From assembly GCA_023248155.1 (NCBI GenBank), contig JAHFFE010000005.1:29057-93056 (forward strand): a stretch of DNA of 64,000 nt, given 5' to 3'. How positions within the stretch are numbered: the stretch's first letter is position 1; each line of letters starts with the position of its first letter. Both the position numbers and the translations under genes were made by a program. The notes under the pieces are model-generated. The model was not told the origin of the DNA. It saw nothing but the letters and a program-made list of their open reading frames with translations, and did not search any database. Shown here one piece after another: positions 1-61,549 of this stretch. The DNA comes from Candidatus Omnitrophota bacterium. GTDB lineage: Bacteria > Omnitrophota > Gorgyraeia > 1-14-0-20-64-10.

Positions 1-22
1 TGGCTGGTCTAATTTCATTCAG

Positions 23-3000
23 ATGGAATACAGCTGGAGGCTTTTTGCATTGGGAGGGGGGAATCATGTTTATCTAGCGATTTTCATCAACAATGCGATA
101 GACGCGATAGCGGATGAATCGGAAAGACGCGGAGAATCTTACCTGGGCAGAATCAATCTGCGCGCAGGTTCAACGGTTGAAGGATATTCTTTTATCGAAA
201 TCTCTGATAACGGTGCGGGTATCCCTCCCGAAATTCTTCCCGGGATATTTCATGAGGGGGTGAGTACAAAACCGAATGTCAATCTGCCTGAAAGGAGACG
301 ATTGGGAGGATTTGGGACGGCATTCGCGGGAGAGTTCTATTATGGCCCACACTTATTGAATAGGACCTCGGGATGGATTGAGATCGATACCCGAATGGCT
401 AAAGAGAAAAACTCACGTTTTGTAAAATACAGCCCCAGCTCCGGAACCTTGGCACCGTTGAATGTTTCAAGAGGAAGACGAACCGAGGTAGGGACATCGA
501 TCCGTTGGGTTTTTAGACATCTTCCCGCTGCCGGGCAGGAGGAGCGAACGCTTCCGGGTTCTTTTCGGCGGGAAGATTTAGCCAGTTATGACAGCGTGCT
601 TGAATTAGAGAGTCGGACTATTTTGGAAAAGCGTGCGCAGAAGGGATCAGGAGAACTGCTCTGGGTAGGAGGAACAGGGGTGGCTGGTTCCGGAAAGTCC
701 ACATTGTTCGACGCTCTCCATCAGAAACTGCAAGCGGCCGGAGCACATACCTTGCGATTGGGAGAGGATAATGTCGGTTTTTTTGATCTGACTACTCGAG
801 AAAGCTGGAAATCGTCCGAGCCAGTTCGCTGGAGAAATTATCGCGATTGGCTGCGCTGGGACAATATCCAAAAAACGCTGGACCAAATCCGTAAGGCAGG
901 CGTAGCGGCTGCCACGCAGGGTCCGCAAGCCATCTACCTGAAACAGATTTACGATCGTCCCTCTGGAACGGTGTCCGATCCGAAAGATCCCGTTTGGGTA
1001 TTCCCCGACACGATCGTGCTTTATGATGGAACCGCTCTTTCGGAAGGAGATCCGTATCCGCTGGGAATGTTCGACCACCTCATCCTTCTGGATATTTCTT
1101 ACGAGGCTAGTCTCAGGAATCAGATCGGCCGGGCAGAACGGCTGGGCCGCCAACCCGGACGAGTAGAGGAAATTACATCCCAGGTAAGTTTTCCTTTTTG
1201 GAGAGATACGGTTGCCAGAAATCATCCCGAAAGAGTAGCCCACTCCATTTATGACATGACCGATTTTAATCATCCCGTTCGCTTGAGTTATCAATCCGCA
1301 GGGCTGGAGGAGAATATTAAGAAGGTGGAAGGCAATCTCGCATTTGAGACCCATGTTTTGTCAGACCCCTTGTTTTTGGCTGTTTTCGGAGACGATTCTT
1401 CAGCCAACGTGATTCCATCGCCTGCGCTCATGAACAAGAGAGAACATGACCGCTCCAGCTTTCCGGGGTTCTCAGATATCCAGAGAGCGGTTGCTCAATC
1501 GTTGCCTGGAGCGGTTGAGTTGTTGGAGATTGCCAAGCGCGGGAATGTTATCGTGGCGAATGCTTCCAAACTTCTAGAAAATCCATCCGATCCTGAAATA
1601 ATTCCCGAAATTTCATGGGGAGGAACACGGGAAGAAAGGACTTTGAGGATTATTTGGGAGGAAAGACTGCATTTGCTGGACGACCGACTGGAATTGTCGG
1701 ACTATGAGAAATGGAAAAAGATAGGTAATGAAATATGGGCAACCAACCATCCGCGGGTGGTATCGGCCCGGAAAATAATTTTGGATTCCCGCAGGTGGCG
1801 CCCTCCGCTGGACAATGTAAAGATGATGTTTGTTGCGGCGGAAGTTCTGCCGCTCTTTTTTGTGGAGTTTCGAGATGAATTCTTCGAACAGCATGTTTGG
1901 CCTATTCTTCAGCAGGTTTTCAGTCCGGAGTCTTTGGAAGTGCTGCTCCGGCTTCGAGAAGAGAGCCGGCCTACTTCTGAGGAAATACAAAACCTTCTGA
2001 ATGCTGCCGCGGCAGTCAGCGCTCCTTCGGATTCCGCTGCTGGGCAGGAGGAAGATGTCAGAAAACCCGTCCGAGCATTCCTTCAAAAACAGCTGGGGCT
2101 CCAGGTGGAGGATTCCATCCTGGACAGGATTATTACCGATCCTACCCAAGGCAATGTTTCCACGCAGTTAGAACCATTAATTGAAACCCAGCTAAAAGCC
2201 GGTGATAAGGTCAGGGCAACGAAGCGAATTCCCGGGGTTGTTTCCCAGCTAGGGCCAATCATTAGTAAAGCAAAAAGAGAAGTTGCTGAAAAACAGGTCC
2301 AGAAAACCCGGCAAGAAATCGCTTGGGTTCGTAGTGTTGTTCTTCCTGGGATGCGGCAATTTTTTGAGGGAGGAGATCCGGCAGATCCTCTGGAATTTTA
2401 TCGGGCTGTCCGGGATTTTTCAGCCGCTGGAAAAGAATGGAAAGAGTTGGTCGATTCTTATTTGCGGCAGCTTCCTCCGCAACAATCGGGGATATCGCTG
2501 CAGGAAGAAGGATCTCTTTTTTCAGATTTTCTCAAATGGATGAACGACCGCTGGTTTATCACTCGGGGGCACCTTCTTTTTCCTGGCGATGCTGCACTCG
2601 TCAGCAATATGGGGGAGGTGATGGACTATTTAAAGATGGGCCGCATTGAGGAGACCCGTATTTATAACTATGCTGATCACGAAATTCCCGTTTATTTTGT
2701 CCGGGAAGATGAGCCCGTTGCTCACAATGTCACGCTGGCTGGCCATGGACATACCGGCTATATCTTCGTGCGCCACAGCGCTCTGGACGCGAAGAATGCC
2801 ATTCTGGAATCTATCGGCGCGCATGCAGACAACTTTTATCGGCTTTCCGATGCACAGATACGAGAAGAAGGGTACATTCCGGATATTTTTCGTCTGTCTG
2901 TCAAAGTGACCGGCAGTCTCTATCGGCGTATTGTTGCCAACCGTTCTACCATGCGAAACCACCTTCAGGAAAATCTGCTTTTTGAAGAGCTTCGCCACTG

Positions 3001-6000
3001 GATGGTTCATACCGCCATTGAAAATGCGGCCGGTTTCAAATTTTCTTCGGCGAACGACCAATTCTTTGAACTTTATGCACAACATTTATTGCGTCCAAAT
3101 GGAGTGCTTCGTTCTATTTTTAACAGTGCCGATGTTTTTCAAAGTCCTTTGGTAGAGTCACGCATGGAATTGGGCCTTGGAATTTATGAAGTGGAAGGAT
3201 CTTTTGGGCGAGCCGCCCAGTCTCTGGAAGATTTAGAATCGGTTCTCCAGGGCTGGATTGATATCTTTATCAATCTTGAAGATGTCGACGCCGGATACGA
3301 TCAGTACGCTTCGGACGCTGTTCTTGGGATCCGCCTTCTTGCAGACCAGTTAGGGATTTCAAATCCTTCGGAGCGATTGACCCCACAGAATTGGGATCAG
3401 CTTGATAAAAGACGGTTGGTTGAAATGGCTGGAGAGATCTACGAACGCTTGGAAGAGGCCTTCCAGGCATTGGGACTTCTTTCACAGGAAGAGTTTGTTA
3501 TTCCGCTTTCAGATGTGGCTACTCTTGTTTCCGAAAAGAAGATTTCTTCTTCTGCCGGGCAGGAGGAGGGCATTGAAACCATCCTGCTGATTGGCTCCGA
3601 TGAGGATGAGATAGCGCGGGTTCGGGGCATCGCCGAAGAAATTTTTCCTTACGCGGATATCCAGCAACTGCCGCTTCCGTTGCCAACCGCCATAAATTTC
3701 AGGCGACTCGATGTGGCGGTTTTGGTGGATTTCGATGAGAGCGCCAAAGAAACGCTGGCGCAGGCCTTCACGGCAAGGAAGATTGCCCATCTCATCGCGC
3801 CCGACCATTGGGATGAACGGCTGGAAGATTACGATCTGCGGGAAGCATTCGAAGGATTTCGTCCCAGCGGGCTGGAGGAAAAGGAAAACCCAGGACATTC
3901 GGCTTGGCTGCAAACAGACCGTTTGATTGATAATTTCCTTCGCGGGCACCCCGGCGGACCATTGACAGAAAAAGAGCTTGCCGCTGGGATCGATAGGCAT
4001 CCGCGGACCATGGCGAATCATAATTACAAAGATCGCGTTAGAGCGGAAAACACCCGGCGCGTTTCGCTGAATCCGCCGCTCCCTCCTATTTTCCTGGATA
4101 GAAGAGAAGTTATTATCACAGCGCTCCGGAAACATCCGGGCGGTTTTTTGACGGCCAAGCAACTTGCGAAGCTTACAACGTTAAGCACGACAGCGCTCGA
4201 CCATAACGGCTACAGGACACTCATCGATGAAGAAAATGCCGTACGGTTGAAGCGGGGTCCTTTCGTTATGCCGATTACTCTTACCGCCCGAAAGGCCATT
4301 ATCGCTGCTCTTCAGCGCCATCCGGGAGGGTCTCTTCGCTTGAACTGGTTAATTTCTCTCGCGAAGGTGGACCGAAAAACTCTCCGCAATCATGATTATC
4401 GAACGCTGATTAAAGAGGAGAACACGCGGCGCTCCCAACAAAAGCCGCCTCGGCCGGCCATCCAATTGCCCCGCGTTGGGAATCCATCCGTTGTTGTTGC
4501 CGCCGGGCAGGAAGAGCGGGTTTTGGAAACCCATCGGACTTCTTTTGAGATTAAGCTGGCGGATTTTGACGGAATCGAGGGAGGGATTTTAGTTGTAAAC
4601 GGGCAGAACCGATATTTTCGGTCAATCGAGAACCGATTTTTCCGCATTAACCTGGAGACAGGAGTTAGGTTGGAACCTCTTCCCAATAGGGATTTGCTGG
4701 CCGACATTCTGTTTGGATTGTCACAGCTTACCGCAGAGATGATGAACCGCCATCCGCCGCGATCAGTCGTTCAGATGGCACAAGAAAAAGGGCATGCGGT
4801 TGCGAACCCCTCAGTAGATATCACGCTGGACTATACGCCGACCCATGTCCTGGTTTCCGTAAATGGGGATAAAGCCTATCGAATTAATAGAAATCAGGCG
4901 GTTGACATCGAGTCTCTTCATGGGTTTGAGTTGGATAATGCGATAAAAGGAATGGTTGTGGCGTTTGCCATGGGTTCTATTGTTTTGGATGATGAGCTGC
5001 GCCCGCTGTTTCGGGGATTGAATAATACGCAGTTTTTCGCCAAGTTGCCCAGCGAAGTCCGTGCTGCCGGTCTGGAGGAGAATCCGGAGCCCACTGCGGT
5101 TCTGCCTTCTCAGGTTACTGGTTTTGATTTCGCAGGCCAGGATACGCCGGAACTTCAGCAGAGTAATGTGCTGGCGCTTCTTGAATTTCTTAAGGTGGAT
5201 GCGAACGGATTGGTTGTCAATGTTGGATCAGGGGTGCGGCCGCTCACCTTTGGGGATTCTTCTCGGCGCAAGCCGTTGAATCTGGATACGCAGCCATATG
5301 CGCGGCCAGCCGCCGATCGAGCCGGCGCGAACTATGCCGACGCGGATATCATTCAAATCGCCGGAGCGGCTTCTCCGGGGAATACGAATGCACTTCCCGA
5401 TGTTCTTTTGTTTTACCGGATGGGTTCGTTTGTCGATATCTATCATGGGCATAACGCTCAGAAATTCTGGCAGGCGGCATGGAAGCTCGTTCGTCCCGGG
5501 GGATGGATATTGCTGATGAATCCACCCAACCTGGAATTCCCCATCCAATCTCTGGATTATTCGTATCAGCAGGTGCTTTCTTCCCTGGTGTCCGGAAAGA
5601 AACCGTCGGAGGTACACGTCGTTTCACCCGATGGGACAATGGCGAATGCGTTGGCGATTGCTATTCGCAAGCCTGCTGCCGGGCAGGAGGAGAACGGTTG
5701 GCGGGATGTCGCTGGACGATTTTGGGGACGAGTCAAGGATTGGTTTGTTGCCAAACCGATTAATTTGGATGCGCGTCGCGACGCGATGAAGACGGGTGCT
5801 TCACTTGGATTATGGCGCCCGCCCGATCCGGCGGCAGTACCGCTGTTGACGCTGGATCAGGAGGGGCAGGTGGGTAATTTGATCCATGAAATCAATGTTG
5901 CGCGTTCTAATGCAGAACAAGGTCGAGGCGATCCCGCGTTTACATATGCTGCTGGCAAGACATTGATTTCCGCGCGGCAATGGGGTCAGGCACTGCAACG

Positions 6001-7879
6001 CTTGAAAGAAGAGGGAGTGCACCCAAGCCATCTCTCCAGAATTGAAACTGCATGGACCGCATTTGAGCGGATATTAGAGACCAAAGCGACTACGCCGACC
6101 CGCCAGCTTTTGTTGGAAGGTTTCCGAACCGGAATACGTGATCCGGAACATGCCTCTCTTTGGGAAATGGCGCATGTGCGTGCCCGTATTCTGAATCACC
6201 TCGGTGTTCCAGTGGACGGAGGGGCGGTTTATCACGATGCAGTCGCTCAACATATGAGCTTGGATCAATTAAGTCAACGATTGGCTGCACAGTACGCCGA
6301 CAGCGTTCCGTTGGTTGTCAGTGCGGGTGGGGAGTTGACTGCCCGGGGAGTGCCAGTTCAGTTGAGTGATTTGAGTTCTTTGTTGGGAAAATTATTGGTC
6401 AGAGAGGTATCCCCTGATACGGAAAGTCTCATGTTTTGGTCGGACAATCCGGCTAATGTGGTAGAAATTATAGGCGCGGAATCTGTTATTGGGGACTGGC
6501 ATGAATTAACGCTGCACAACGCTTTTATTGAAGCCAGAGAAAATGTGTGGCAGCGTCTGAGAAATCGATTCGGTCCATCGGCCCCGAAGCCCTGGCTTCC
6601 CTGGAACGCGTCTGAGTTTCCCAATGATTCAAATACTGTAACGGATTGGGAACAATTTCTTTATGATCGAGGAGAAGTGTCGGTTTTGTTTCATCGCCGC
6701 GAATTGTTGCGGTATGCCGTAAAAACTCGAATCGATGAGTTGAAAGCAGAAGGCCGTTGGAATCCAGCGCAATCGCTCGATGATTTGATACGCCGCATTG
6801 ATGAGATGACTCCTGACGAGGTAGAAGCGGGTATTCGAGAGGAGCAATCGGTTGTGGCTGCAAATATTGTAGAGCCGTTGGCTGCCGTTGAGCCAAATTT
6901 GGCCTGGATAACAAAGGATTCGCAACAGCCGTTGCGGCAATGGGCCGAATTGCTTTCCGGATTTGCGTTGTTGGAACCGGTAGTTTTACGCATAGAGGTG
7001 GGAGAAGCCGGTTGGCCCGTAATTAGATGGAGAAGTTCTCCCAAACAGTCATTCAGGACTTTAAGTTCCAATTCTGATTTGTATCGGGCGCTTAGTTCCT
7101 CCGGTTGGTTTCGGAATCTGAAATATCCCCGCTACAGCATTGGTATTGATCAGAGTGTTTCTGCTGAACGGCTGGAACAGGAGTTTGGCGAGACAAGCCA
7201 GTTATGGAGAACCACGGCAGATGAAGATGGTTTGATCCGTTATGATATTGCTCTTCGTGCCGGTCTGCCTGTTTACACCGCCGGGCAGGAGGAAAATCAG
7301 GTGCAGCCTCGACGGGAATTTTTACAGCGGGTAGGTCTGCCGGTTGGCTTGACGGCTCTTCGTTATTTTTCCGGACTATTCGTGAATGGAAATCCAAATC
7401 AAATGGTGGATGATCCGGAACTGGCTGGCCGGTTGAATATTGAAAAAGGCCGGAAGATAACGCTGGTTGCAAATGTCGACTCTGCTTTTGTTCAAACACC
7501 GAATCGGATTTTGGCGCAGCCAGGTGCGTTAATTCCACGCCAGTGGCAGGGAATTCCGGTAGAAGTTTTGCCACGAAACATCGAAGCGGCACGGATAAAG
7601 TTGGACGCGATCAATGCTGATGCGGCCGATGTCGCTCTGTTGAATTATTCGGTTGTTGGCTCTGAGGATATGACCGGATGGGATGAACTGCTGCGCTCGC
7701 GCGAAATTGCCGGATTGGCGCTATCGGAAGATAGCTTGAACAGCGTCAATACACTACTTCCAAGCGAACTCGCTACTTTACTGGGTGCCGTGCGGATGGC
7801 AGGTGGTCTGATGGTTCCGGTTGGAGTAGAGGTTTATATCCGCAGTACCGAAGAAAAACAGTTGTTGTTGGCCGCCTAA
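23..7879 (+). CDS. Giant multidomain protein, 2618 aa in the window and probably 5'-truncated at the window edge. It has an HK-type GHKL ATPase domain, a P-loop uridine-kinase-like domain, 3 wHTH-like repeats and a class-I SAM-methyltransferase-like domain, with a recurrent [AST]G[QL]EE motif.
   Basis: The ORF runs 7857 nt without a stop, and the frame stays open upstream to position 2. The N-box 'NNAIDA', the G1 box 'DNGAGIP' and a 'GGFGT' G2-like box indicate an HATPase_c domain. Walker A 'GVAGSGKST' lies at nt 678-704, followed by 'DHLILLDISYEASLRNQIGRAER', which resembles uridine kinase/PRK. 'VVNVGSGVRP' and 'LVRPGGWILLMNPP' resemble methyltransferase motifs I and post-I. Confidence 0.8.
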   Translation: MEYSWRLFALGGGNHVYLAIFINNAIDAIADESERRGESYLGRINLRAGSTVEGYSFIEISDNGAGIPPEILPGIFHEGVSTKPNVNLPERRRLGGFGTAFAGEFYYGPHLLNRTSGWIEIDTRMAKEKNSRFVKYSPSSGTLAPLNVSRGRRTEVGTSIRWVFRHLPAAGQEERTLPGSFRREDLASYDSVLELESRTILEKRAQKGSGELLWVGGTGVAGSGKSTLFDALHQKLQAAGAHTLRLGEDNVGFFDLTTRESWKSSEPVRWRNYRDWLRWDNIQKTLDQIRKAGVAAATQGPQAIYLKQIYDRPSGTVSDPKDPVWVFPDTIVLYDGTALSEGDPYPLGMFDHLILLDISYEASLRNQIGRAERLGRQPGRVEEITSQVSFPFWRDTVARNHPERVAHSIYDMTDFNHPVRLSYQSAGLEENIKKVEGNLAFETHVLSDPLFLAVFGDDSSANVIPSPALMNKREHDRSSFPGFSDIQRAVAQSLPGAVELLEIAKRGNVIVANASKLLENPSDPEIIPEISWGGTREERTLRIIWEERLHLLDDRLELSDYEKWKKIGNEIWATNHPRVVSARKIILDSRRWRPPLDNVKMMFVAAEVLPLFFVEFRDEFFEQHVWPILQQVFSPESLEVLLRLREESRPTSEEIQNLLNAAAAVSAPSDSAAGQEEDVRKPVRAFLQKQLGLQVEDSILDRIITDPTQGNVSTQLEPLIETQLKAGDKVRATKRIPGVVSQLGPIISKAKREVAEKQVQKTRQEIAWVRSVVLPGMRQFFEGGDPADPLEFYRAVRDFSAAGKEWKELVDSYLRQLPPQQSGISLQEEGSLFSDFLKWMNDRWFITRGHLLFPGDAALVSNMGEVMDYLKMGRIEETRIYNYADHEIPVYFVREDEPVAHNVTLAGHGHTGYIFVRHSALDAKNAILESIGAHADNFYRLSDAQIREEGYIPDIFRLSVKVTGSLYRRIVANRSTMRNHLQENLLFEELRHWMVHTAIENAAGFKFSSANDQFFELYAQHLLRPNGVLRSIFNSADVFQSPLVESRMELGLGIYEVEGSFGRAAQSLEDLESVLQGWIDIFINLEDVDAGYDQYASDAVLGIRLLADQLGISNPSERLTPQNWDQLDKRRLVEMAGEIYERLEEAFQALGLLSQEEFVIPLSDVATLVSEKKISSSAGQEEGIETILLIGSDEDEIARVRGIAEEIFPYADIQQLPLPLPTAINFRRLDVAVLVDFDESAKETLAQAFTARKIAHLIAPDHWDERLEDYDLREAFEGFRPSGLEEKENPGHSAWLQTDRLIDNFLRGHPGGPLTEKELAAGIDRHPRTMANHNYKDRVRAENTRRVSLNPPLPPIFLDRREVIITALRKHPGGFLTAKQLAKLTTLSTTALDHNGYRTLIDEENAVRLKRGPFVMPITLTARKAIIAALQRHPGGSLRLNWLISLAKVDRKTLRNHDYRTLIKEENTRRSQQKPPRPAIQLPRVGNPSVVVAAGQEERVLETHRTSFEIKLADFDGIEGGILVVNGQNRYFRSIENRFFRINLETGVRLEPLPNRDLLADILFGLSQLTAEMMNRHPPRSVVQMAQEKGHAVANPSVDITLDYTPTHVLVSVNGDKAYRINRNQAVDIESLHGFELDNAIKGMVVAFAMGSIVLDDELRPLFRGLNNTQFFAKLPSEVRAAGLEENPEPTAVLPSQVTGFDFAGQDTPELQQSNVLALLEFLKVDANGLVVNVGSGVRPLTFGDSSRRKPLNLDTQPYARPAADRAGANYADADIIQIAGAASPGNTNALPDVLLFYRMGSFVDIYHGHNAQKFWQAAWKLVRPGGWILLMNPPNLEFPIQSLDYSYQQVLSSLVSGKKPSEVHVVSPDGTMANALAIAIRKPAAGQEENGWRDVAGRFWGRVKDWFVAKPINLDARRDAMKTGASLGLWRPPDPAAVPLLTLDQEGQVGNLIHEINVARSNAEQGRGDPAFTYAAGKTLISARQWGQALQRLKEEGVHPSHLSRIETAWTAFERILETKATTPTRQLLLEGFRTGIRDPEHASLWEMAHVRARILNHLGVPVDGGAVYHDAVAQHMSLDQLSQRLAAQYADSVPLVVSAGGELTARGVPVQLSDLSSLLGKLLVREVSPDTESLMFWSDNPANVVEIIGAESVIGDWHELTLHNAFIEARENVWQRLRNRFGPSAPKPWLPWNASEFPNDSNTVTDWEQFLYDRGEVSVLFHRRELLRYAVKTRIDELKAEGRWNPAQSLDDLIRRIDEMTPDEVEAGIREEQSVVAANIVEPLAAVEPNLAWITKDSQQPLRQWAELLSGFALLEPVVLRIEVGEAGWPVIRWRSSPKQSFRTLSSNSDLYRALSSSGWFRNLKYPRYSIGIDQSVSAERLEQEFGETSQLWRTTADEDGLIRYDIALRAGLPVYTAGQEENQVQPRREFLQRVGLPVGLTALRYFSGLFVNGNPNQMVDDPELAGRLNIEKGRKITLVANVDSAFVQTPNRILAQPGALIPRQWQGIPVEVLPRNIEAARIKLDAINADAADVALLNYSVVGSEDMTGWDELLRSREIAGLALSEDSLNSVNTLLPSELATLLGAVRMAGGLMVPVGVEVYIRSTEEKQLLLAA

Positions 7880-7950
7880 AACCGCGCATTCTCCCCGCGA
7901 AATTGCCTTGCCCGGAACCTTCTTCCAGAGTACAATAATCTACTTATCCT

Positions 7951-8778
7951 ATGAATTTGAAGAGCTATTTGCACCAGCGCCAAAATCTGGTTAATAAGGC
8001 GCTGAATAGGTATCTTCCTTTACCGAAATCGGTCAAAGGGCCTGTTCATGAGGCGATGCGCTACTCCGTTTTAGGGGAGGGCAAGCGTATCCGCCCGGTT
8101 CTGGCTTTGGCTGCCTGCGAGGCGGCCGGCGGCACCGTTCCCCAGGCGATTCATGCCGCTTGCGCGTTGGAGATGATCCACGCCTATTCGTTGGTTCATG
8201 ATGATTTACCGGCGATGGATGATGACGATTTCCGACGGGGAAAGCCATCCTGCCACAAGAAATACGGCGAAGCGATGGGTATTTTAGCCGGCGATGCTCT
8301 GATGACATTTGCGTTTGAGTTGCTGACCCATTCGAAGGCGAAGCCGGCTACGCAGATTAAAGTAATTCGGGAGATTGCGCAGGCGATCGGTACCGAAGGG
8401 ATGATCGGCGGGCAGGTGGCCGATGTGGTGTTTGCTTCCGGCTCGAAAAAGGTCGATCCGAAAACGATGGATTACATTAACCGCCGCAAAACCGGCGCGT
8501 TGTTATCGGCGTCGGTGCGCGTCGGGGCTTTGCTGGGCGGGGCGAATGCAGCCACTTACCGGCGGTTTGCCAGGTATGGCGAGAATATCGGGCTGGTGTT
8601 CCAGCTGATTGATGACATTTTAGACAAAGACGGCGCGGTGCGCGGCTCCAGTGTGGAAGCGGTGCGCAAGCGCGCGGAACGATTAACCGACGAGGGAATC
8701 ACAGCGCTCAAGCCGTTCGGAAAACGGGCGGAACCGCTGCGGCAGTTGGCACGATTCCTCGTGACGCGAGGTTCTTAA
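7951..8778 (+). CDS. Polyprenyl diphosphate synthase (FPP/GGPP synthase family, IspA/CrtE-like)
   Basis: The first Asp-rich motif is 'LVHDDLPAMDDDDFRRGKP' and the second is 'FQLIDDILD'. Confidence 0.85.
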   Translation: MNLKSYLHQRQNLVNKALNRYLPLPKSVKGPVHEAMRYSVLGEGKRIRPVLALAACEAAGGTVPQAIHAACALEMIHAYSLVHDDLPAMDDDDFRRGKPSCHKKYGEAMGILAGDALMTFAFELLTHSKAKPATQIKVIREIAQAIGTEGMIGGQVADVVFASGSKKVDPKTMDYINRRKTGALLSASVRVGALLGGANAATYRRFARYGENIGLVFQLIDDILDKDGAVRGSSVEAVRKRAERLTDEGITALKPFGKRAEPLRQLARFLVTRGS

Positions 8779-8788
8779 AAGAGAAGCG

Positions 8789-10702
8789 ATGTCAAAACTG
8801 ATTGACCAGATTAATTCACCGGCCGATTTACGAAAATTGCGCCAGGATCAGATGCCGCAGGTGGCGCAGGAAATCCGCGAACTGATCGTTGAAAAGGTCT
8901 CCAAGTCCGGCGGGCATTTTGGCGGACCGATGGGCGCGGTGGACCTGGTCGTGGCGATGCATTACGCATTCAATACGCCGGAAGACAAATTGATCTGGGA
9001 TGTCGGTTATCAGGCTTACGCGCATAAAATCCTGACGGGGCGGCGCGACCGTTTTGGAACGCTGCGCCAGTGGCAGGGCATCTCCGGTTTTCCGCATTGC
9101 GAGGAAAGCCCCGAGCACGATATGTTTACGATCGGGCATGGCGGCACCTCTATTTCAACGGCGCTGGGTTTGGCGCGCGCGCGCGACCACCTGAAACAGA
9201 AACAGCAGATCGTCGCGATTATCGGCGATGGATCAATTCCGGAAGGGATGGCGCTCGAGGGTCTTAATCACGCGGGCCATCTCAAAACAAATATGCTGGT
9301 GATTTTGAACGACAACAACATGGCGATCGCACCGGCCGTCGGCGCGTTAACACACGCGTTCAACCGGATGATTGCCGACCCGATGTATAACCGCGTTCGC
9401 CGCGAAGTTCAGAACGCGGTTCAGAAAGTGCCGCGCGTTGGTTTCCGGATGATCCGCATGGCGAAACGGCTTGAAGAGTCGATGAAGAATTTATTGGTGC
9501 CGGGCGTTTTGTTTGAAGAGCTCGGGTTCCGTTATTTTGGACCGATCGACGGGCACAACATCGACGAGATGATCGAAGAGTTCCGCAACTTAAAAGATCT
9601 GCCGGGTCCGAAACTGCTGCATGTGCGCACTGTGAAGGGCAAGGGCTATGCGCATGCCGAGGCGCAGCAGTGGAAGTACCACGGCGTTACGCCGTTTGAT
9701 CCGCAGACCGGCGAAATTTTCAAGAAACCGGCCCCCGAAACGTTCACACAGCGATTCTCCAAAGTAATGGTCCGGCTCGGAAAGTCCGATCCGAAGATCG
9801 TGGCGATCACCGCGGCGATGCCCGATGGCACCGGCTTAGTCGATTTCTCGAAAGAACTGCCGGGACAATTTTATGATGTCGGCATGTGCGAACAGCACGC
9901 GGTTGGCCTGGCGTCCGGATTGGCCAAGGGCGGCATGAAACCGTTTGCCGTAATTTACTCCACATTTTTGCAGCGCGGATATGATCAGGTGATTCATGAC
10001 GCTTGCATTCAGAATCTGCCGGTCATTTTTACGATGGACCGCGCCGGCCTGGTTGGCGACGACGGCATTACGCATCACGGCGTTTTTGATATCGCTTATA
10101 TGCTGCCGCTTCCGCGCATGACTTTTATGGCGGCCAAAGATCTCGATGAACTTGAGGCGATGCTCGACTACTGCGCTCAATTTACCTCAGGCCCGATAGC
10201 GCTCCGTTATCCGCGCGGAACGATGCTGCGGTTTGATCCGGACTTGAAACTGACGCTGCCGGCGAAAACCGCGCCGATTGAACTGGGCAAGGCCGAGATT
10301 TTAGCGCGCGGTTCTGAGCTGGCGATCGTAGCGGTCGGCAGTATGGTTTATCCGGCGCTGGAAGCGGCGGCGCGATTATCCGCGAAAGGAATTTCCACGA
10401 CGGTGGTGAATGCCCGTTTCTTGAAGCCGATCGAGACCGAATTTTACGCGGCGCTGGCCAAAGAGCACCGCGCCATGCTGATTGTCGAGGAAGGGGTTCT
10501 TACCGGCGGTTTTGGCCCGAACTTGATGGCTCAATTATCCGGACAGGTCAACGGCACCGCGATGAACGCCATGGGAATTCCCGACAAGTTTTTTGAACAT
10601 GGCAAGCGCGAGATTTTACTGAATGAAGCGGGGCTGACGACCAATCATATCGAGCAGGCCGCCGAGCAATTACTCGACAGGAAGACGGCGTATGTTAGAT
10701 AG
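8789..10702 (+). CDS. dxs: 1-deoxy-D-xylulose-5-phosphate synthase
   Basis: 637 aa with a TPP-binding 'GDGSIPEGMALEGLNHAG' and a transketolase-like pyrimidine-binding domain and C-terminal domain. It overlaps the next gene by 11 nt. Confidence 0.9.
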   Translation: MSKLIDQINSPADLRKLRQDQMPQVAQEIRELIVEKVSKSGGHFGGPMGAVDLVVAMHYAFNTPEDKLIWDVGYQAYAHKILTGRRDRFGTLRQWQGISGFPHCEESPEHDMFTIGHGGTSISTALGLARARDHLKQKQQIVAIIGDGSIPEGMALEGLNHAGHLKTNMLVILNDNNMAIAPAVGALTHAFNRMIADPMYNRVRREVQNAVQKVPRVGFRMIRMAKRLEESMKNLLVPGVLFEELGFRYFGPIDGHNIDEMIEEFRNLKDLPGPKLLHVRTVKGKGYAHAEAQQWKYHGVTPFDPQTGEIFKKPAPETFTQRFSKVMVRLGKSDPKIVAITAAMPDGTGLVDFSKELPGQFYDVGMCEQHAVGLASGLAKGGMKPFAVIYSTFLQRGYDQVIHDACIQNLPVIFTMDRAGLVGDDGITHHGVFDIAYMLPLPRMTFMAAKDLDELEAMLDYCAQFTSGPIALRYPRGTMLRFDPDLKLTLPAKTAPIELGKAEILARGSELAIVAVGSMVYPALEAAARLSAKGISTTVVNARFLKPIETEFYAALAKEHRAMLIVEEGVLTGGFGPNLMAQLSGQVNGTAMNAMGIPDKFFEHGKREILLNEAGLTTNHIEQAAEQLLDRKTAYVR

Positions 10703-12632
10703 TACCGGCCTTCTTGAAAAAGAAGGTGTTTCTGTTTCTTCCTCTACGCTGAAGACCGCGATCACGCGCGTTACCCGCTTTCTGATGGATCAGCGCAAGC
10801 CGGACGGCCATTGGTGCGGTGAATTGGAAGCCGATACGACGCTGGAATCGGATACTGTCAAGATGTGGCATTTATTGGGCCGCGTCGATGCGGATCGCGA
10901 AAAGCGTTTGGTTGCCACGATTCTGAAACATCAAAATGCCGAGGGCGGCTGGCCGATCTACGCGGAGGGGCCGGCGGAACTGAATGCCACCGTGAAAGCC
11001 TATGTGGCGCTGCGGCTGGCCGGTTTTAATAATTCCGATCCGCGTCTGGTTCTGGCGAAAGAGGCAGTGCTTCGGCTTGGCGGGCTCGAGCGGATCAACA
11101 GTTTTGAAAAAACGTATCTGGCGCTGCTAGGTCTTTATCCGTGGAACCAGGTGCCGGCGCTTCCCGCCGAGATCATCTTTTTACCAAACTGGTTTGCGTT
11201 CAATATTTACGAAGTGGCCTACTGGTCCCGCACGATTTTAGTTCCGCTGATGGTGCTCTATTCGACCCGGCCCAAATGGGTTGAACTTGATTTTTCGGTT
11301 GATGAATTGTGGCAGGATCCTCGCCGCAAACAGGCGAAGATGACCAATTTTCAGAAGGGCGGAGCGGTTTGGCGGGTTTTCTTCCTGTTCTCTGATTGGA
11401 TGCTGCGGTTGCATGAAGCAGTACCGTTTAAACCGCTGCGCAAAGCCGCGCTTCGCCGCACCGATCGCTGGATGACGGACCGGTTGATGGAGACCGACGG
11501 TCTCGGCGCGATTTATCCGGCGATGATCAACGCTGTTTTCGCGCTGAAGGCGCTTGGTTATGGCGATGGCGATCCGGCGCTGGAACAGTCGATTCGTGAA
11601 GTGGAACGGCTTGAGCTGCCGGACGGTTCGGACGGTTTGAAATTACAGCCTTGTTTTTCGCCGGTCTGGGATACGGCGCTGGCGCTTTATATCGTCGGGA
11701 AAACGGCCGGGCGCGATGAAACGGCGTTGGAGCAAACCGCCGAATGGCTTCGGCAGCGTGAAATTCGCAGTTACGGCGACTGGCGCGTCAAGAACCGGAA
11801 GGCGCAGCCGGGCGGATGGGCGTTTGAGTACCGCAATCCTTTTTATCCCGACGTCGATGATTGCGCGCAGGTGTTGTTGGGTTTTCAATCACTCTATGGA
11901 AAAGCGCAGGCCGCTGCGTCGCCGGTGCATCAGCGTTCAATCACATGGATTCTCTCGATGCAGAACGATGACGGCGGGTGGGCCTCATTCGATAAAAATA
12001 ATAATTGTGAAGCGCTGAATCATTTTCCGTTTGCCGATCATAACGCGATGCTTGATCCGTCGTCCTGCGACATCACGGGGCGGATTCTGGAAATGTTTTC
12101 GGGGGCCGGGTTAACGACGCGGCATCCGCAGGTGCGGCGCGCCGTTGATTTTCTGCTGGCGCGTCAGGAGCCGGATGGAACCTGGTTCGGCCGCTGGGGC
12201 GTGAACTATATTTACGGAACCTGGCTGGCGCTGCGCGGACTTAAAAGCATCGGCATTGATTTGAATGAGCCGAGGTATCAGAAAGCGGGACAGTGGATTT
12301 TGAAACATCAGAATGCCGACGGCGGCTGGGGCGAAAGCTGCCGGTCGTACGATGATCCGTCATTAAAAGGGCAGGGTCCCTCGACGGCATCGCAGACGGC
12401 CTGGGCATTAATGGCGCTGATGTCGCTGGGGCTTCAGCAACTTCCGGAATTCCGGAAAGGGACGGACTTTTTGGTACGGACGCAGCAGGCCGATGGGAAC
12501 TGGGATGAATCCTGGTTTACCGGCACCGGCTTTCCGCGCGTTTTTTATCTTAAGTATCACCTATATCGGACTTACTTCCCCCTATTGGCTTTGGTGGAAG
12601 CCCAACAAGAACTCAAGGAGCAAGTAAACTAA
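10692..12632 (+). CDS. shc: Squalene-hopene cyclase
   Basis: 646 aa with multiple QW repeats ('[10 protein letters not shown]', '[10 protein letters not shown]', '[10 protein letters not shown]') and the catalytic 'DVDDCAQV' (DxDD) motif. Confidence 0.9.
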
Positions 12633-13756
12633 TGGCAATCGCATGGAGACAGGGATTATCGGTGGGCAGCTACATCTTCGGCCAGAAGCTGAAGGGCGTT
12701 GAAAAATTTCCATTGGTGTTAATGCTGGAGCCGTTGTTCCGGTGCAACCTCGAGTGCGCCGGCTGCGGAAAGATCCAGTACCCGGAAGATATTTTGAAGA
12801 AGCGGCTTTCGGCTCAGGAATGTGAAGATGCCGCCATGGAGTGCGGCGCGCCGATCGTTTCAATCGCCGGAGGGGAACCGCTGATCCACCCGGAGATGCC
12901 GGAGATCGTCGAGCGGCTCGTCAAGCGCAAGAAATTTGTTTATCTCTGCACGAACGCGGTTCTGCTCGCGCGCGAAATGAAGAAATACAAACCGTCGCCG
13001 TATTTCCGGTTCAGCATCCACCTCGACGGGCTGGAAGCGACGCATGACAAGTCGGTCTGCCGTAAAGGTGTCTTTAATCAGGCGATCGAAGGAATCAAGG
13101 CGGCGAAGGCGGCCGGGTTCACCGTTTCCACGAACACCACCATCTTCCTCGGCGCCGATCCCGGCGAATTCCGCCGGATGTTCGATCATTTGATGGATCT
13201 CGGCGTTGACGGCATGATGATTTCGCCCGGCTATCCGTACGAGAAAGCGCCGGACCAGCAGCATTTTCTGCAGCGCGAGCAGACGAAAGCGCTGTTCCGC
13301 CAGATTCTCGACAATGCCGATCCGCGCTGGCGCTTCAATCACTCCACGTTCTTCCTGGAGTTTTTGCAGGGTGAGCATGATTACCAGTGCACGGCTTGGG
13401 GCAACCCGACGCGCAATGTATTCGGATGGCAGAAGCCGTGTTATCTGATGAGCGACGGGTATGTCAAAACATTCAAAGAGTTGATGGAAGATACCAAGTG
13501 GGAAAATTACGGCACCGGCCGCGATCCGCGCTGTGCCGACTGCATGGTGCATTGCGGTTATGAAGCGACAGCCGTGATGGACGCGACCGCATCGGTGAAG
13601 AACATCATGCATACGATCCGGCCGTTTGGCTCAACGCGTTCCAAGGCGCCGGTCAGCTCCACCGAGGTTCCTCCTCCGCCGGCCCATTCTTCGTCGTCGG
13701 GACCGGTTCCGAATGTGACGCTGGAGTTTCAGCAGAAAAAGTCTTCGTCGGAATGA
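12632..13756 (+). CDS. hpnH: Hopanoid-associated radical SAM protein (adenosylhopane-forming HpnH-like)
   Basis: It has a '[10 protein letters not shown]' CxxxCxxC radical-SAM motif, and the start codon overlaps the shc stop ('taATGg'). The position directly after shc matches hopanoid clusters. Confidence 0.8.
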
Positions 13757-14259
13757 CGAAAACATCCGCCAATCCTGGATTGTCTCAGGATTGTCTTGAC
13801 GCGCTGCGGGCACAGCGGTTTAATTTCTTTTCCGGCGTGGCCGATTCGACACTGGCCTCGCTGATTGAACTGCTCTCGAACGATCCGCTCGGGTATGTTC
13901 CGGCGGCCCGTGAAGATCTGGCCATCGGAATGGCTTCCGGCGCTCATCTGGCCGGCCGCCGCGCCTGTGTGCTGATGCAGAATTCCGGCATCGGCTATTG
14001 CCTGAACGCGCTGACCTCGCTGAATATGATTTATAAAATTCCGCTGCTGCTGATTGTCGGTTACCGCGGTTACGAGGGCAAGGATGCCCCGGAACATTGG
14101 GTGATGGGCAAGCACTGCACGGCGCTGCTCGAGGAAATTGGCGTTAAGACGCTGGTTCCCGAGGCGGCCGATCTGCCGCGCGCGATCGAACAGGCTGCCG
14201 GTTGGATGAGCGGCAGTCAGCTTCCTGTGGCCGTTTTTGTGCGGCCGGGGATGCTCTAA
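13753..14259 (+). CDS. Phosphonopyruvate/sulfopyruvate decarboxylase-like TPP enzyme, alpha (N-terminal, pyrimidine-binding) subunit
   Basis: 168 aa. '[18 protein letters not shown]' and '[16 protein letters not shown]' match the TPP_enzyme_N fold of ComD/Ppd-type split decarboxylases. Confidence 0.6.
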
Positions 14260-14261
14260 TC

Positions 14262-14846
14262 ATGGTTCTTACTACACGGCAGGCGATTTTCGCAGTGGCG
14301 CGCCAGCTTACGAATCACGAGCGGGTAGTTTCCACTACCGGATATATTTGCCGCGATACGCATGCGGCCGGTGATCGTCCCGAAAATTTTTATATGATTG
14401 GATCGATGGGCATTGCGTCATCGACCGCGATGGGCATCGCGCTGGCTCAGCCGGGGGAAACCGTGGTGGTCTTCGACGGTGACGGCGCGGCGCTGATGGG
14501 CTTGGGCGCACTGCCGGCGATCGCGTCGGTAGCCCCTGAAAATCTGATCCATGTAGTCTTTGATAACGAAGCGTATGCATCGACAGGCCGTCAGCCGACC
14601 TATTCATCGTCGGTTGATTTGGCGGCATTGGCCCAGGCGGCCGGCTACCGGGTTGTCCGCAAGGTAGACACGGAAGCGGCATTGCTGAGCGCCTGGCAGG
14701 AAATTCGAAAACAGCGGGGACCGGTCTTTTTACTGGTGAAATGCGTTCCGGACGAGGGCGCCCCGATGGAACGGGTGGGGTTGGAGCCGGAAGCGATCAC
14801 AGCACGATTTATGGAGGCTATTCATGGTACGAATGAAAGATTCTAG
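14262..14846 (+). CDS. Phosphonopyruvate/sulfopyruvate decarboxylase-like TPP enzyme, beta (C-terminal, PP-binding) subunit
   Basis: It has the TPP-binding 'VVVFDGDGAALMGLGALP...N' motif. The start is placed at the ATG at 14262, which immediately follows the alpha-subunit stop; the tracked ORF starts at 14202. Confidence 0.65.
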   Translation: MVLTTRQAIFAVARQLTNHERVVSTTGYICRDTHAAGDRPENFYMIGSMGIASSTAMGIALAQPGETVVVFDGDGAALMGLGALPAIASVAPENLIHVVFDNEAYASTGRQPTYSSSVDLAALAQAAGYRVVRKVDTEAALLSAWQEIRKQRGPVFLLVKCVPDEGAPMERVGLEPEAITARFMEAIHGTNERF

Positions 14847-16137: not shown

Positions 16138-16139
16138 AC

Positions 16140-18117: not shown

Positions 18118-18289
18118 TAACTAGGGGTGCCGGGCATGGGGACCGTGGACACGCTCGGAATCGACTACCGATTCCGTCGCTCTGTCTGCGGCCTTGCCGA
18201 AGAACATTTGGATTTGGCCTCCGCCAAGGTCCACTTGCCCCATATCCCGGCCCGCCTCTTCGCTTTTATTCTCAGGCATGGGTATCTGA

Positions 18290-18910: not shown

Positions 18911-18926
18911 ACAAGGAGAACCTCAG

Positions 18927-19931: not shown

Positions 19932-20276
19932 ATGAGCGAACCAAAACAGCCGGTTGCTTCGGAGTCGGAACTTCCCGAAGGATCTTCCAAGCTGGTCACT
20001 GTGGACGGTAAGGAAGTGGCGCTGATTCGTGCCGAGGGCGCACTCTACGCCGTTGGTAACCGCTGTCCGCATCGCAGCGGGCCGCTGGTCCGCGGAAAAG
20101 TAGAACACGTCCCGGAGAATCCGGCCGATCCATCCTCCAAAACAACGCTGGCGGTTCGCTGCCCAATTCACGGCTGGTTGTTCGAACTTTCGACGGGCCG
20201 TTGTTTAACGCGGCCCAGCGCTTCGGTTCCAACTTATCCGGTTGAATGCGATAACGGACAGATTTGCATTGGTTAG
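19932..20276 (+). CDS. Small Rieske [2Fe-2S] protein (NirD-like)
   Basis: It has 'CPHRSGPL' and 'CPIHGW' CxH...CxxH Rieske ligand boxes. It is 114 aa. Confidence 0.75.
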   Translation: MSEPKQPVASESELPEGSSKLVTVDGKEVALIRAEGALYAVGNRCPHRSGPLVRGKVEHVPENPADPSSKTTLAVRCPIHGWLFELSTGRCLTRPSASVPTYPVECDNGQICIG

Positions 20277-21630: not shown

Positions 21631-21634
21631 TCTT

Positions 21635-24840: not shown

Positions 24841-24849
24841 CAGCCCGCC

Positions 24850-26058: not shown

Positions 26059-26076
26059 ACCAACTCTAGGGGACTA

Positions 26077-54809: not shown

Positions 54810-54833
54810 AATAGAATATTGATTTTTTACCGC

Positions 54834-59143: not shown

Positions 59144-61549
59144 TTGATGCGTTCACTCAAATTCCAATTTTTAAACCATCCTCTCTTAAGGGGAATAGCG
59201 TTGATTTTAGCGCTTTCCCTGGTTTTTTCTGCGCCTGCTTTTGCGTTGCGCCCAACGGGTCTTGAAGAATCAAAGTCAAAGATTGAGCTTCAGAATGCCT
59301 TACTCAATTCTTCTGGTTTGGAGGAAAATGGCTCTACTCGTAGGGAATGGATAGGGAAATTGGGCATAACCGGTTTGGTAGCACTTGTTTTTATATGGAC
59401 AGGGGTCCTCAGTTTTCGTGACATGGTTGGGAGAGATACTCTTCCCAACCCACAATTTGTTATTTCACCGCATCAACAAATAGGCCCTTTACCGGTTATA
59501 CAACCGTCTCCGAAGGATCTCTTGCGATTGAGTGACACGCTGGCGCAACAATTGGCAGAGGATCCCGGATTCTTCGGTTGGTTTGCGGGAGTCTCTGATC
59601 AGGAAGCGGCTCAGACTCAACAGGATATGGCTTTTTATATCCGGTATCTGGAGTACCGCAATCAATGGTTGTTGCAGCATCTGGCGCGTACTCAAGGGAT
59701 AAAACTTTCGGAAGAGGACCAAAAAGAGCCGATTGATCCGCATTATGCCGACTATTATAGGGATCAGATTTCCTCAGATCCCAATCGGTTGGAGCGTTTT
59801 AAAAGAACCCGTTCTGAAATATATCTGGACATTGCCGCACAACCTTTTCCGGATGCGATTGATTTTGAGGGAAAGATTGGTCTGGATGAAAGAGCGTTTC
59901 CGAGAAGTACTCTTCGGCTTTTAAATAAATTAATGGAACACAAAGAGCGGTATCTCTCTCTCGAAAAGAAACTGGCGACTGTCCCATCGGATCAGAAATT
60001 ATCCGTTGTTTTAAGCCGCCTGCCTGTTCTGTTTCGAATGGTGCAGGAGGGAGCTATTTCGACAGAGACGGCAACTGCCGAATTGAAAACCGCGCTCGGC
60101 TTGGTCGGAGCAGATAGGCTCTCTTCTTATTTTAGCGCGCTGATCGACTGGACTGCGTTGAGCCGCACAGAAAGAGACCCCAAAAAGATTCGGCCTGTTT
60201 TGAAAGAGTTGGCAGAATTGTTGCGGGCCGATAATTTCTTTCTGGATCCTTATCTGATAGCCCGTCCGCAGGACGAGGATCCTTATTGGGACAGTTTGGT
60301 TTTCAAGATAGTTCATGTAGGAAAAATCGGGGAGAAAGAGGTCCACTTCCTTCAGCGAATTCGCGGCGGATTATCGCGCGGACAAAAAATAACCCAGGCA
60401 GGGTACCATCATTATGCCTTGGGCGATCAGAAAGAGATATCGGTTGTTCTTATGGATCAACTGTGGGATACCGCCCAGCTTGTCAAAAGTGGAATTGATG
60501 ACGGGTCTTATGCCATCGTCGATTGGTCCGATTTTGCAAAAAGTCAGCGTCTTCAGACCGGCATTGCAAGAACGCTTCGCCAATTTGTACAGCAGGCTGA
60601 GTTGCCTTCCGATAGGCCATCTCTTTGGCGTCTGGCAGTTTATAATTCAGCGCTACATGAGCATACGCATGCTTTAGGGAATTCGAGCGAATATTGGACC
60701 AATTTGGTGGAGCTTGCCGTGGGGCATTCGGGAATGCAGATGCCGCACCTTCATAGCCAGATATACGACTCTGATGTGCCGCCGCATTACAAAAAGGCTT
60801 CAAATCAAATACTCGATGGTTTAAAAGATTGGAGAATTAATCCGTTGGAGGTTGACAGCGTTTCCCAACTGCGCGGTGGGGCGGGGGCTTTGTTGCGCCG
60901 AGAGGGTAGAAATCTTTTCGATTATTTTTCATTGCCGGCTGTTCAAGAAGATCTGAAACAGTTGAGAGAGGATCTCGAAAAAATTCCTCCGCCGAGAGAG
61001 TCGTTGTTGAACAACCTGGTTCAGGCCATATCCCCAAAGAAATCGGGTGCCGGACTGGAAGAGTTTTTCTTGGAAAGCGCTGTCGCGTGGCCGGAAGTCC
61101 GAAGTGGTCTTCTGCGGAAAGGATGGGTGGCCGTTCCAGGCGGATATCTTGTCGAAACCCGCCAGATTTCTTCTCAAGAGCCGTTGATTATGCAAACTGG
61201 TTTAGAGGAGCCCGGGGGCCTTCCTGCGAGCGTACCGGTTATCCGGACTAATGAAACGACAGTTGATGGGATGCTTATGTTCCTTCTGGAGCAGTCTGGA
61301 CAAAATAATTTCAATGTGGTTTTTTCAACGGCTTATTTCGATCTCGCGCAGGCAAGAACTGCCGTTCCATCCAGCGGGCTTAGACCCGGCTCTGTTCTTG
61401 TCAGGCCTGGATTGGCAATTCAGGCAAATCAGTTAGGGGCCGCGCTGATCATTTCGAAGGAAGTAGGAACGATTTATATAGTTCAGATGACAGAATTTAC
61501 CTCTCCCGATTGGGATGCGCCGCTGCTCTATATCCAGGCGCAGGTTTAG
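59144..61549 (+). CDS. Secreted/membrane-anchored 801-aa protein with an HEXXH zincin-like motif and four [ST]G(A)GLEE motifs. Function unknown.
   Basis: The signal peptide is 'LILALSLVFSAPAFA', and a TM segment 'LGITGLVALVFIWTGVLSF' follows. 'ALHEHTHALGN' carries the HExxH motif. The GLEE motifs are 'PTGLEES', 'SSGLEEN', 'GAGLEEF' and 'QTGLEEP'. Confidence 0.7.
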   Translation: MMRSLKFQFLNHPLLRGIALILALSLVFSAPAFALRPTGLEESKSKIELQNALLNSSGLEENGSTRREWIGKLGITGLVALVFIWTGVLSFRDMVGRDTLPNPQFVISPHQQIGPLPVIQPSPKDLLRLSDTLAQQLAEDPGFFGWFAGVSDQEAAQTQQDMAFYIRYLEYRNQWLLQHLARTQGIKLSEEDQKEPIDPHYADYYRDQISSDPNRLERFKRTRSEIYLDIAAQPFPDAIDFEGKIGLDERAFPRSTLRLLNKLMEHKERYLSLEKKLATVPSDQKLSVVLSRLPVLFRMVQEGAISTETATAELKTALGLVGADRLSSYFSALIDWTALSRTERDPKKIRPVLKELAELLRADNFFLDPYLIARPQDEDPYWDSLVFKIVHVGKIGEKEVHFLQRIRGGLSRGQKITQAGYHHYALGDQKEISVVLMDQLWDTAQLVKSGIDDGSYAIVDWSDFAKSQRLQTGIARTLRQFVQQAELPSDRPSLWRLAVYNSALHEHTHALGNSSEYWTNLVELAVGHSGMQMPHLHSQIYDSDVPPHYKKASNQILDGLKDWRINPLEVDSVSQLRGGAGALLRREGRNLFDYFSLPAVQEDLKQLREDLEKIPPPRESLLNNLVQAISPKKSGAGLEEFFLESAVAWPEVRSGLLRKGWVAVPGGYLVETRQISSQEPLIMQTGLEEPGGLPASVPVIRTNETTVDGMLMFLLEQSGQNNFNVVFSTAYFDLAQARTAVPSSGLRPGSVLVRPGLAIQANQLGAALIISKEVGTIYIVQMTEFTSPDWDAPLLYIQAQV

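Follow-up and report, generated by a model that had tools for sequence, protein, structure and literature searches.

What purpose is served by a five-residue peptide that recurs along a giant protein built from unrelated domains? The question is raised by a 64-kb stretch of the Candidatus Omnitrophota contig JAHFFE010000005.1 (hereafter the window, meaning the whole stretch that was analyzed), the left end of which is occupied by a giant open reading frame (ORF; 2..7879, plus strand) punctuated by the motif [A/S/T]-G-[Q/L]-E-E. The frame is open from base 2 to the left window edge, the ATG at 23 is internal, and the translation of 23-7879 corresponds to a 2,618-codon ORF. The complete database protein, P0001, has 2,736 amino acids (aa) and is identical to window 2-7876, the window holding the 3' 96% of this modular protein and the true start lying ~330 nucleotides (nt) upstream. 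The extra 118 residues of P0001 comprise a signal-peptide-like N-terminus, MKRPIFSHNSAVFISVALIASLILPPQSAMPA, with n-, h-, and c-regions and an AxA site (a signal peptide judged by eye), together with two additional motif copies, NAGQEES and PAGQEER, bringing the count from 9 in the window part to 11 in the full protein. From the composition of the giant ORF, only 0.17 copies of G[QL]EE would be expected in 23-7879, compared to the 9 observed, and an earlier note on this DNA was thus right that the enrichment exceeds chance. Judged from the sequences, the motif joins the modules of a lineage-specific protein family that has at least 23 members, drawn from several genomes of Omnitrophota-like (Planctomycetes-Verrucomicrobia-Chlamydiae) bacteria. 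The architecture of this family is apparently undescribed and represents a case of the multi-enzyme giants already known from Omnitrophota.

Along the window part of the giant ORF, the motif reads AGQEE at 530..544 (GCC GGG CAG GAG GAG, at the boundary between a GHKL and a P-loop module), AGLEE at 1298..1312, AGQEE at 2039..2053 and 3554..3568, SGLEE at 3866..3880, AGQEE at 4502..4516, AGLEE at 5066..5080, and AGQEE at 5678..5692 and 7280..7294, all on the plus strand. The corresponding Gly codons start at 533, 1301, 2042, 3557, 3869, 4505, 5069, 5681, and 7283, and the residue before G[QL]EE is A in 8/9 copies and S in the other. The positions reported previously marked the starts of hexapeptides and were correct to within a few bases. 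The last copy is followed by a stretch resembling a twin-arginine translocation (Tat) signal, QPRREFLQRVGLPVGL. A six-frame scan of the whole window for G[QL]EE detected 14 instances, 9 of them in the giant ORF, 4 in a second gene at 59144-61549, and 1 in LexA. Concern that [A/S/T]-G-x-E-E might be a generic linker of this organism was justified to the extent that the motif is common to one class of signal-peptide proteins, including the product of that second gene, p801, but it is absent from the remaining ~50 ORFs of the window.

The wider family was recovered in a full HMMER search in which the 801-aa p801 was queried against 1.84 billion representatives, yielding 22 proteins of 59-2,603 aa. 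The layout of the family begins with a Sec-type, signal-peptide-like N-terminus ending in AxA (again a call made by eye), followed by a leader of the form L-R-P/Q … G-x-E-E, usually with two copies ~20 residues apart, then enzyme or regulatory modules that are unrelated to one another and differ from member to member, and finally a conserved C-terminal domain of ~130-200 aa, of which there are a few types. Accordingly, most full-length matches have a signal-peptide-like start followed by (A/G)-L-R-(P/Q) and G-[LM]-E-E, most carry internal [AST]-G-[QL]-E-E copies (up to 13 per protein), and most end in a conserved C-terminal domain of ~170 aa. In total, the 23 family proteins contain ~90 motif copies compared to ~1 expected, and across ~300 kb of loci, two or more copies occur in ORFs of family members only. 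Pooling 25 sites gave the consensus [P/S]-x-[A]-[A/S/T]-G-[L/Q/V/M]-E-E-[R/N/S/D], and the motif is best refined to [AST]-G-[LQMV(I)]-E-E.

The second family member in the window, p801 (59144..61549, plus strand), illustrates this layout on a smaller scale. Its signal peptide is followed by ALRPTGLEESK and, 19 residues on, by SSGLEEN (TGLEE at 59255-59269 and SGLEE at 59312-59326), after which come RRxW and a hydrophobic helix. A module with a conserved HExxH (60656-60670; conserved pattern HExxHxxG…E), conceivably that of a zinc metallopeptidase, precedes AGLEE at 61049-61063 and a C-terminal domain, designated type A, that contains TGLEE at 61196-61210. Beyond the motif, BLASTP found no similarity between the giant protein and p801. 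The type A domain was modeled with AlphaFold2 (AF2) as an α/β fold (predicted local distance difference test score, 87.5) that itself holds a G-L-x-E-P loop, and in this model, the motif occupies the transition from a disordered linker to the first helix, a position that fits an exposed site. The giant ORF instead ends in a type B domain (7295..7876, plus strand), which aligns over its full length with the homologous C-terminus of another member, P0030 (33% identity; 1-198/198 versus 1-197/197; E=2e-19); types A and B are collinear, but their similarity is not significant (hhalign, E 0.079). A third type closes the giant gene of locus L006, described below, and two genes of locus L021. The latter, an Omnitrophota-like chromosome segment near dnaA, dnaN, and gyrBA, encodes three family genes within ~14 kb (1894-13942), one with a GT2-like glycosyltransferase module, one with HExxH, and one with an NAGPA domain.

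Neither the leader nor the C-terminal domain matched any Pfam model, nor did they match NCBIfam in p801, P0001, P0010, P0011, P0012, P0013, or P0030, and the termini gave no NCBIfam match to known sorting signals (PEP-CTERM, LPXTG, GlyGly-CTERM, or the type IX C-terminal domain). A profile of the C-terminal domain found nothing in the PDB, and PDB sequence searches with P0001, p801, and the putative methyltransferase module of the giant ORF found nothing significant. Metagenome scans with alignments of the leader and of the C-terminal domain found nothing, word-indexed protein searches with the whole protein, the repeat region, and the p801 C-terminal domain returned self or nothing, and a search of genome contigs based on P0001 found no related loci.

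The relationship between the motif and the modules can be read from the relatives of P0001, and in neither of the two proteins mapped, L006g and P0012, does any Pfam envelope cross a motif. In L006g, envelopes for Abhydrolase (109-334), PP2C (384-631), a second Abhydrolase (683-848), and a methyltransferase (1041-1164) alternate with motifs at residues 54, 73, 359, 677, 993, and 1474 in the same numbering. In P0012, a dTDP-glucose-dehydratase-type epimerase (82-435), HATPase_c (565-676), and GNAT (1730-1849) are set among motifs at 39, 456, 681, 1355, 1706, 1874, and 2157. When all family proteins were cut at the motif and the pieces compared module against module by BLAST, the homology blocks spanned both modules from first to last residue; for example, P0014 1623-1786 and P0016 781-943 aligned over 3-164/164 and 2-163/163. 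The envelopes in relatives and these motif-bounded blocks substantiate the earlier proposal that the motif falls at domain boundaries. Between P0014 and P0016, whole modules have been inserted, deleted, and duplicated, and as read from such alignments, gains, losses, and duplications affect entire modules, with the motif as their exact limit.

Genes at the same chromosomal position tell a similar story. The locus L006, from an Omnitrophota metagenome-assembled genome (MAG), encodes a 2,342-aa ORF (L006g) in the same position as the giant ORF, upstream of polyprenyl synthase and DXS, and locus L008 contains the 3' end of another such giant gene. The N-terminus of L006g is orthologous to that of P0001 (57% identity over 42 aa), with leader motifs NAGMEES and AAGVEER, in which GMEE and GVEE stand for GQEE, and with six further A/T/G-G-[LV]-E-E copies. 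The positional orthologue therefore retains the motif, the loss of which the earlier note had named as grounds for rejecting its significance. The flanking polyprenyl synthase, DXS, squalene-hopene cyclase (SHC), and HpnH of the window match their L006 counterparts at 66-86% identity, while the giant genes have only the leader and a repeat module in common. Likewise, P0012 (locus L013) and P0018 (locus L021) are both encoded a few kilobases from gyrA/gyrB, with GyrA 77% identical, and share the C-terminal domain only. By these comparisons, same-position genes in related genomes keep the motif and differ in their modules, indicating rapid turnover.

The motif is conserved in two distinct ways. 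In p801, P0030, P0010, and the leader and C-terminal copies of the giants, the motif codons vary (GGT CTT GAA GAA; GGT TTA GAG GAG; GGC ATG GAA GAA), and same-codon identity shows no excess over chance in simulations from the codon usage of each gene. This random use of synonymous codons implies that selection acts on the peptide at these sites. In contrast, the internal junctions of the giants are nearly fixed at the DNA level, with GCC GGG CAG GAG GAG in P0001 and P0014 and TCC GGC CAG GAG GAR at 6/6 junctions of P0012. The same-codon fraction at internal junctions is 0.69-0.94 compared to ~0.4-0.48 expected (simulated P <=0.0002 for each of five genes), the conserved DNA extends over 15-21 nt, and GGAGG is present in 33/35 internal junctions compared to ~13 expected. 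Within the giant ORF, an exact 15-mer, GCCGGGCAGGAGGAG, occurs three times, including at 3554..3568 and 5678..5692, a 14-mer four times, and an 11-mer, GCCGGGCAGGA, five times; the five copies of a longer shared DNA sequence claimed previously hold only for this 11-mer. A 21-nt in-frame repeat family has seven copies, every spacing a multiple of 3, and the copy at 4502..4516, with CAG GAA GAG, is the only one in the window that lacks GGAGG. We read these data as a peptide motif maintained everywhere, to which homogenization of the junction DNA, or selection on it, has been added in the giants. A direct repeat that is identical and in frame at each module boundary is as expected if recombination at the junctions shuffles modules, and we infer that such recombination deletes, duplicates, and exchanges them.

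Taken together, these observations lead us to favor, tentatively and at somewhat below even confidence, a joint reading in which the motif is a processing or recognition site at the protein level and an in-frame recombination joint at the DNA level. The G-x-E-E peptide would be the recognition element for a trans-acting factor, most likely an endopeptidase that would release the modules from one another once exported, so that a multi-enzyme or multi-effector precursor matures in the manner of a polyprotein, and the 15-21-nt junction repeat in the giants would allow modules to be deleted, duplicated, or swapped without loss of frame. A hint that new N-termini may be made at the motif comes from Tat-like stretches (S/T-R-R-x-F-L plus a hydrophobic run) directly following G-x-E-E at five sites compared to 1.5 expected, namely, window 7283-7340, p801 aa 58-90, P0030 aa 52-80 and 521-550, and L021 1894-4824 (minus strand). 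Tat signals are normally N-terminal, whereas these stretches are internal to their proteins unless the chain is cut, and they would make sense if a new N-terminus arises there. Residues 58-76 of P0030 score 16.6 bits against the TIGR01409 cut-off of 16.7, and P0001 has no TIGR01409 match. A fuller version, in which the leader and C-terminal domain mark an exported precursor of a new lineage-specific polyprotein system that is cut at each junction into sets of enzymes, some exposing Tat-like N-termini, with the DNA repeat shuffling modules between strains, is unlikely to hold in its entirety. If it did, the released kinase, phosphatase, acetyl-, methyl-, and glycosyl-transferase, and hydrolase modules would have a host or prey cell as their target, acting on it or inside it.

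Several points weigh against cleavage at the motif. No cleavage product, protease, or partner was found, and in the neighborhoods of six family genes, no gene is conserved beside the family members. The four S8 subtilases encoded in the window are circumstantial, being candidates by proximity alone. Cutting at every motif would also liberate a leader peptide of 15-20 aa that has no evident use and detach the universally retained C-terminal domain from its cargo. The signal peptide has been judged by eye only, and modules that would be expected to function in the cytoplasm (using ATP, NAD, acetyl-CoA, or S-adenosylmethionine [SAM]) are awkward for export behind a Sec-like signal, although they fit effector-like proteins acting in another cell. 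The conservation of junction DNA could reflect a role at the RNA level, as it resembles a Shine-Dalgarno sequence. Finally, at ~aa 2205 of P0014 (locus L014), a junction has decayed to AAGQEGG, where the homologous junction in P0016 reads SGQEEG; the module boundary persists there, showing that a boundary may stay intact after losing its motif. Among specific cutters, signal peptidase I was dropped, given the frequent P, R, Q, or Y at P3, as was a double-glycine leader cut by a C39 peptidase, as the leader is off consensus. PADLOC gave no hits, leaving a defense-system fusion unsupported.

As no protease was found, it is possible, if somewhat less likely, that the motif is instead an uncleaved linker or handle, serving as a helix-capping connector or docking site in a protein that works as one polypeptide. 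One version of this explanation would have an export factor, a chaperone, or the family's own C-terminal domain bind the motif repeatedly during translocation or display. In the AF2 model, the G is an N-cap and L-E-E forms the first helical turn after a disordered stretch, as a capping connector would require, but many other copies are followed within 2-8 residues by a β-strand rather than a helix. The two copies side by side directly behind the signal peptide in several members also speak for this explanation, as does the C-terminal domain, always retained and carrying the G-L-x-E-P loop. The combination of signal peptide and C-terminal domain also recalls sorting systems in which cargo is attached, such as type IX secretion, where the cargo stays attached. 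However, ordinary linkers would not be expected to hold four to five invariant residues over ~90 sites in unrelated contexts, and the Tat-like signals behind the motif make more sense with a new N-terminus. An older suggestion, that the motif is a self-cleavage site of the LexA/S24 type with its Ala-Gly bond, is extremely improbable. Many copies do read A-A-G-Q, like the LexA cleavage loop, and a LexA gene is present at 54819-55517, but S24 cleavage is intramolecular and neither P0001 nor its relatives contain an S24 domain. Moreover, the Ala-Gly bond does not exist in copies that read S-G, T-G, or G-G, the invariant part is G-x-E-E rather than A-G, and the LexA of the window is an ordinary one (LexA_DNA_bind plus Peptidase_S24), the product of a housekeeping gene 47 kb away.

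It is also conceivable, although we consider it quite unlikely, that the signal resides in the nucleic acid, with the junction sequence GG(G/C) C(A/T)G GAG GAG acting as a Shine-Dalgarno-like element of which G-x-E-E is largely the translation. Such an element might pause ribosomes at module ends for folding or export, permit internal initiation, or be a relic ribosome-binding site of fused genes. The GGAGG excess at internal junctions is what this explanation would predict, and of the 19 plus-strand AGGAGG sites in the 64-kb window, 8 are in the giant ORF (7 at junctions), although this strong Shine-Dalgarno core seldom precedes gene starts in the window. An in-frame GTG also lies 8 nt after AGGAGG and before the Tat-like peptide (7283-7310), and PP is found just upstream of some junctions (8 observed compared to 2.5 expected). 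Yet the leader, C-terminal, and small-protein copies keep the peptide without GGAGG (as GGT CTT GAA GAA or GGC ATG GAA GAA), and the residue after Gly is confined to L, Q, M, V, or I, despite the many other NNG codons that would preserve GGAGG. Codons outside the Shine-Dalgarno-like core (GCC/TCC and GGG/GGC) are uniform within a gene as well. A suitably placed ATG, GTG, or TTG is present at 2/9 junctions, with no enrichment (codons read by eye), and internal translation starts were dropped on these grounds. The junction RNA windows are slightly more stable (-24.5 versus -19.3 kcal/mol) but have no common or consistent structure.

How the tentatively favored reading, a processing or recognition site coupled to a recombination joint, relates to known systems is best considered by starting with the organisms themselves. 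Giant multi-domain genes are a hallmark of Omnitrophota, and long multi-enzyme proteins of this group have been described in two preprints (West-Roberts et al. 2023, 10.1101/2023.11.21.568195; and a 2026 preprint, 10.64898/2026.06.07.730766). Cleavage of these giants has been suspected, with the missing information on cleavage points blocking their analysis, including structural analysis (10.1101/2023.11.21.568195). The proteins reported here share the lineage, as the DXS of the window is 69-75% identical to those of MAGs labeled Candidatus Omnitrophota or uncultured Planctomycetia (70-75% for the Omnitrophota MAGs); the lineage is assigned here by similarity rather than phylogeny. They also share the tiling of many unrelated domains along one chain, the methyltransferase, HATPase_c, and GNAT set matching P0001 and its relatives, and most of the published giants carry a signal peptide or transmembrane helices. 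They differ in size, as the published giants have at least 10,000 aa in the 2026 catalogue, while P0001 has 2,736 aa and other members are as short as a few hundred residues. A text search of both preprints found no mention of a junction motif, a shared leader, or a shared C-terminal domain, and in the literature searched, AGLEE/AGQEE or "GLEE motif" is not used in this sense, nor was anything relevant found on Omnitrophota polyproteins.

More distant parallels can be drawn with other modular or proteolytically processed proteins. MARTX toxins of Vibrio have conserved ends, variable recombining effector modules, and short unstructured linkers that serve as processing sites. The family resembles them in placing variable modules, including α/β hydrolase and kinase- or transferase-like ones, between conserved ends. 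However, Pfam and NCBIfam found no RTX repeats or C80 cysteine protease domain in P0001, L006g, P0012, P0014, or P0016, the family N-terminus is Sec-like rather than suited to type I secretion (the window has a type II and not a type I system), and the motif is a strict five-residue one, in contrast to the loosely defined linkers in which the MARTX protease cuts after Leu. Cyanobactin precursors carry the PatA site G-(L/V)-E-(A/P)-S, which is repeated, flanks exchangeable cassettes, and is cut by a subtilisin-like S8 protease. There, too, a short G-[LV]-E-x-x is repeated within one precursor, and the window has four S8 genes, but the cyanobactin cassettes are peptides of 6-8 residues rather than domains of 100-500 aa, no PatA/PatG-type architecture or heterocyclase context is present here, and the subtilases of the window are giants of a surface type. 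Viral polyproteins likewise combine unrelated enzymes in one long ORF with a repeated short site between them. The giant ORF differs in being cellular, in a housekeeping neighborhood beside a hopanoid cluster, in having no recognized protease module, and in having a signal peptide and a conserved C-terminal domain. The giant adhesin LapA is released by the periplasmic protease LapG at a di-alanine site (PMC10990149). Like LapA, the giant protein is, as far as its N-terminus indicates, exported, and many motif copies read P/S-A-A-G, similar to the di-alanine site. LapA, however, has a single site near its N-terminus compared to up to 13 per protein here, G-x-E-E is invariant here, and the S-G and T-G copies of several proteins lack Ala-Ala. 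Within the window, genes for LapG, LapD, or type I secretion were not seen.

The junction motif provides explicit candidate sites for cutting or handling Omnitrophota giants, as well as a simple rule for splitting them into modules for structure prediction. The combination of leader, junction, and C-terminal domain forms a signature with which the family could be cataloged and partners sought by phylogenetic profiling. That the peptide is kept everywhere and the DNA only at internal junctions of giants, with positional orthologues swapping modules wholesale, suggests a mechanism for the rapid diversification of multi-enzyme proteins.

Within P0001 itself, 10 modules follow the leader, of which only the HATPase_c and P-loop modules are recognizable. 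The former, a GHKL module truncated at its N-terminus by the window edge (23..529, plus strand), scored 29.9 bits against a Pfam cut-off of 26.4 when scanned alone and gave weak PDB matches to CckA, upholding the earlier assignment. The P-loop NTPase/kinase-like module (545..1297, plus strand) has a Walker A sequence, GGTGVAGSGKST, at 668, and matches only generic P-loop kinase/GTPase models (MeaB, 23.5 bits; APS_kinase), so that the P-loop call stands and the more specific uridine-kinase label is unverified. Three tandem 62-aa repeats (HPGG…NH.YR.L..EEN.RR; 3881..4501, plus strand) are real, their earlier designation as winged helix-turn-helix repeats being unproven, and this repeat module is the sole internal module common to the giant ORF and its positional orthologue in L006 (33% identity). 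The SAM-methyltransferase-like domain proposed for the giant ORF found no support from Pfam, the PDB, or pairwise comparison.

Downstream of the giant ORF, a hopanoid/isoprenoid cluster (7951-22855, plus strand), syntenic with L006 and L008, encodes polyprenyl synthase, DXS, SHC, an HpnH-like radical SAM protein, an aminotransferase, LPG_synthase_TM, and an epimerase, along with a second SHC-like gene, an NTP-transferase/CDP-alcohol transferase fusion, IspH, and a split thiamine pyrophosphate enzyme (13753-14259 and 14202-14846). A type II secretion system (23209-32653) is followed directly by the four giant S8 subtilases in tandem (32822-54809, plus strand; 2,160, 1,570, 2,158, and 1,314 aa), which have fervidolysin-type propeptides and FG-GAP, He_PIG, Big_9, Ig, fn3, and PKD repeats, none with the junction motif. 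Near the right end of the window, a ThiS-ThiF-rhodanese triple fusion adjoins a PALP (cysteine-synthase-like) gene (61791-63263 and 63241-63951, both on the minus strand), a pair that suggests a CysO/CysM-type sulfur-carrier pathway. Outside the window, the GyrB encoded beside P0012 carries an intein, with an Intein_splicing match in a 1,295-aa product (L013 17576-18012 and beyond).

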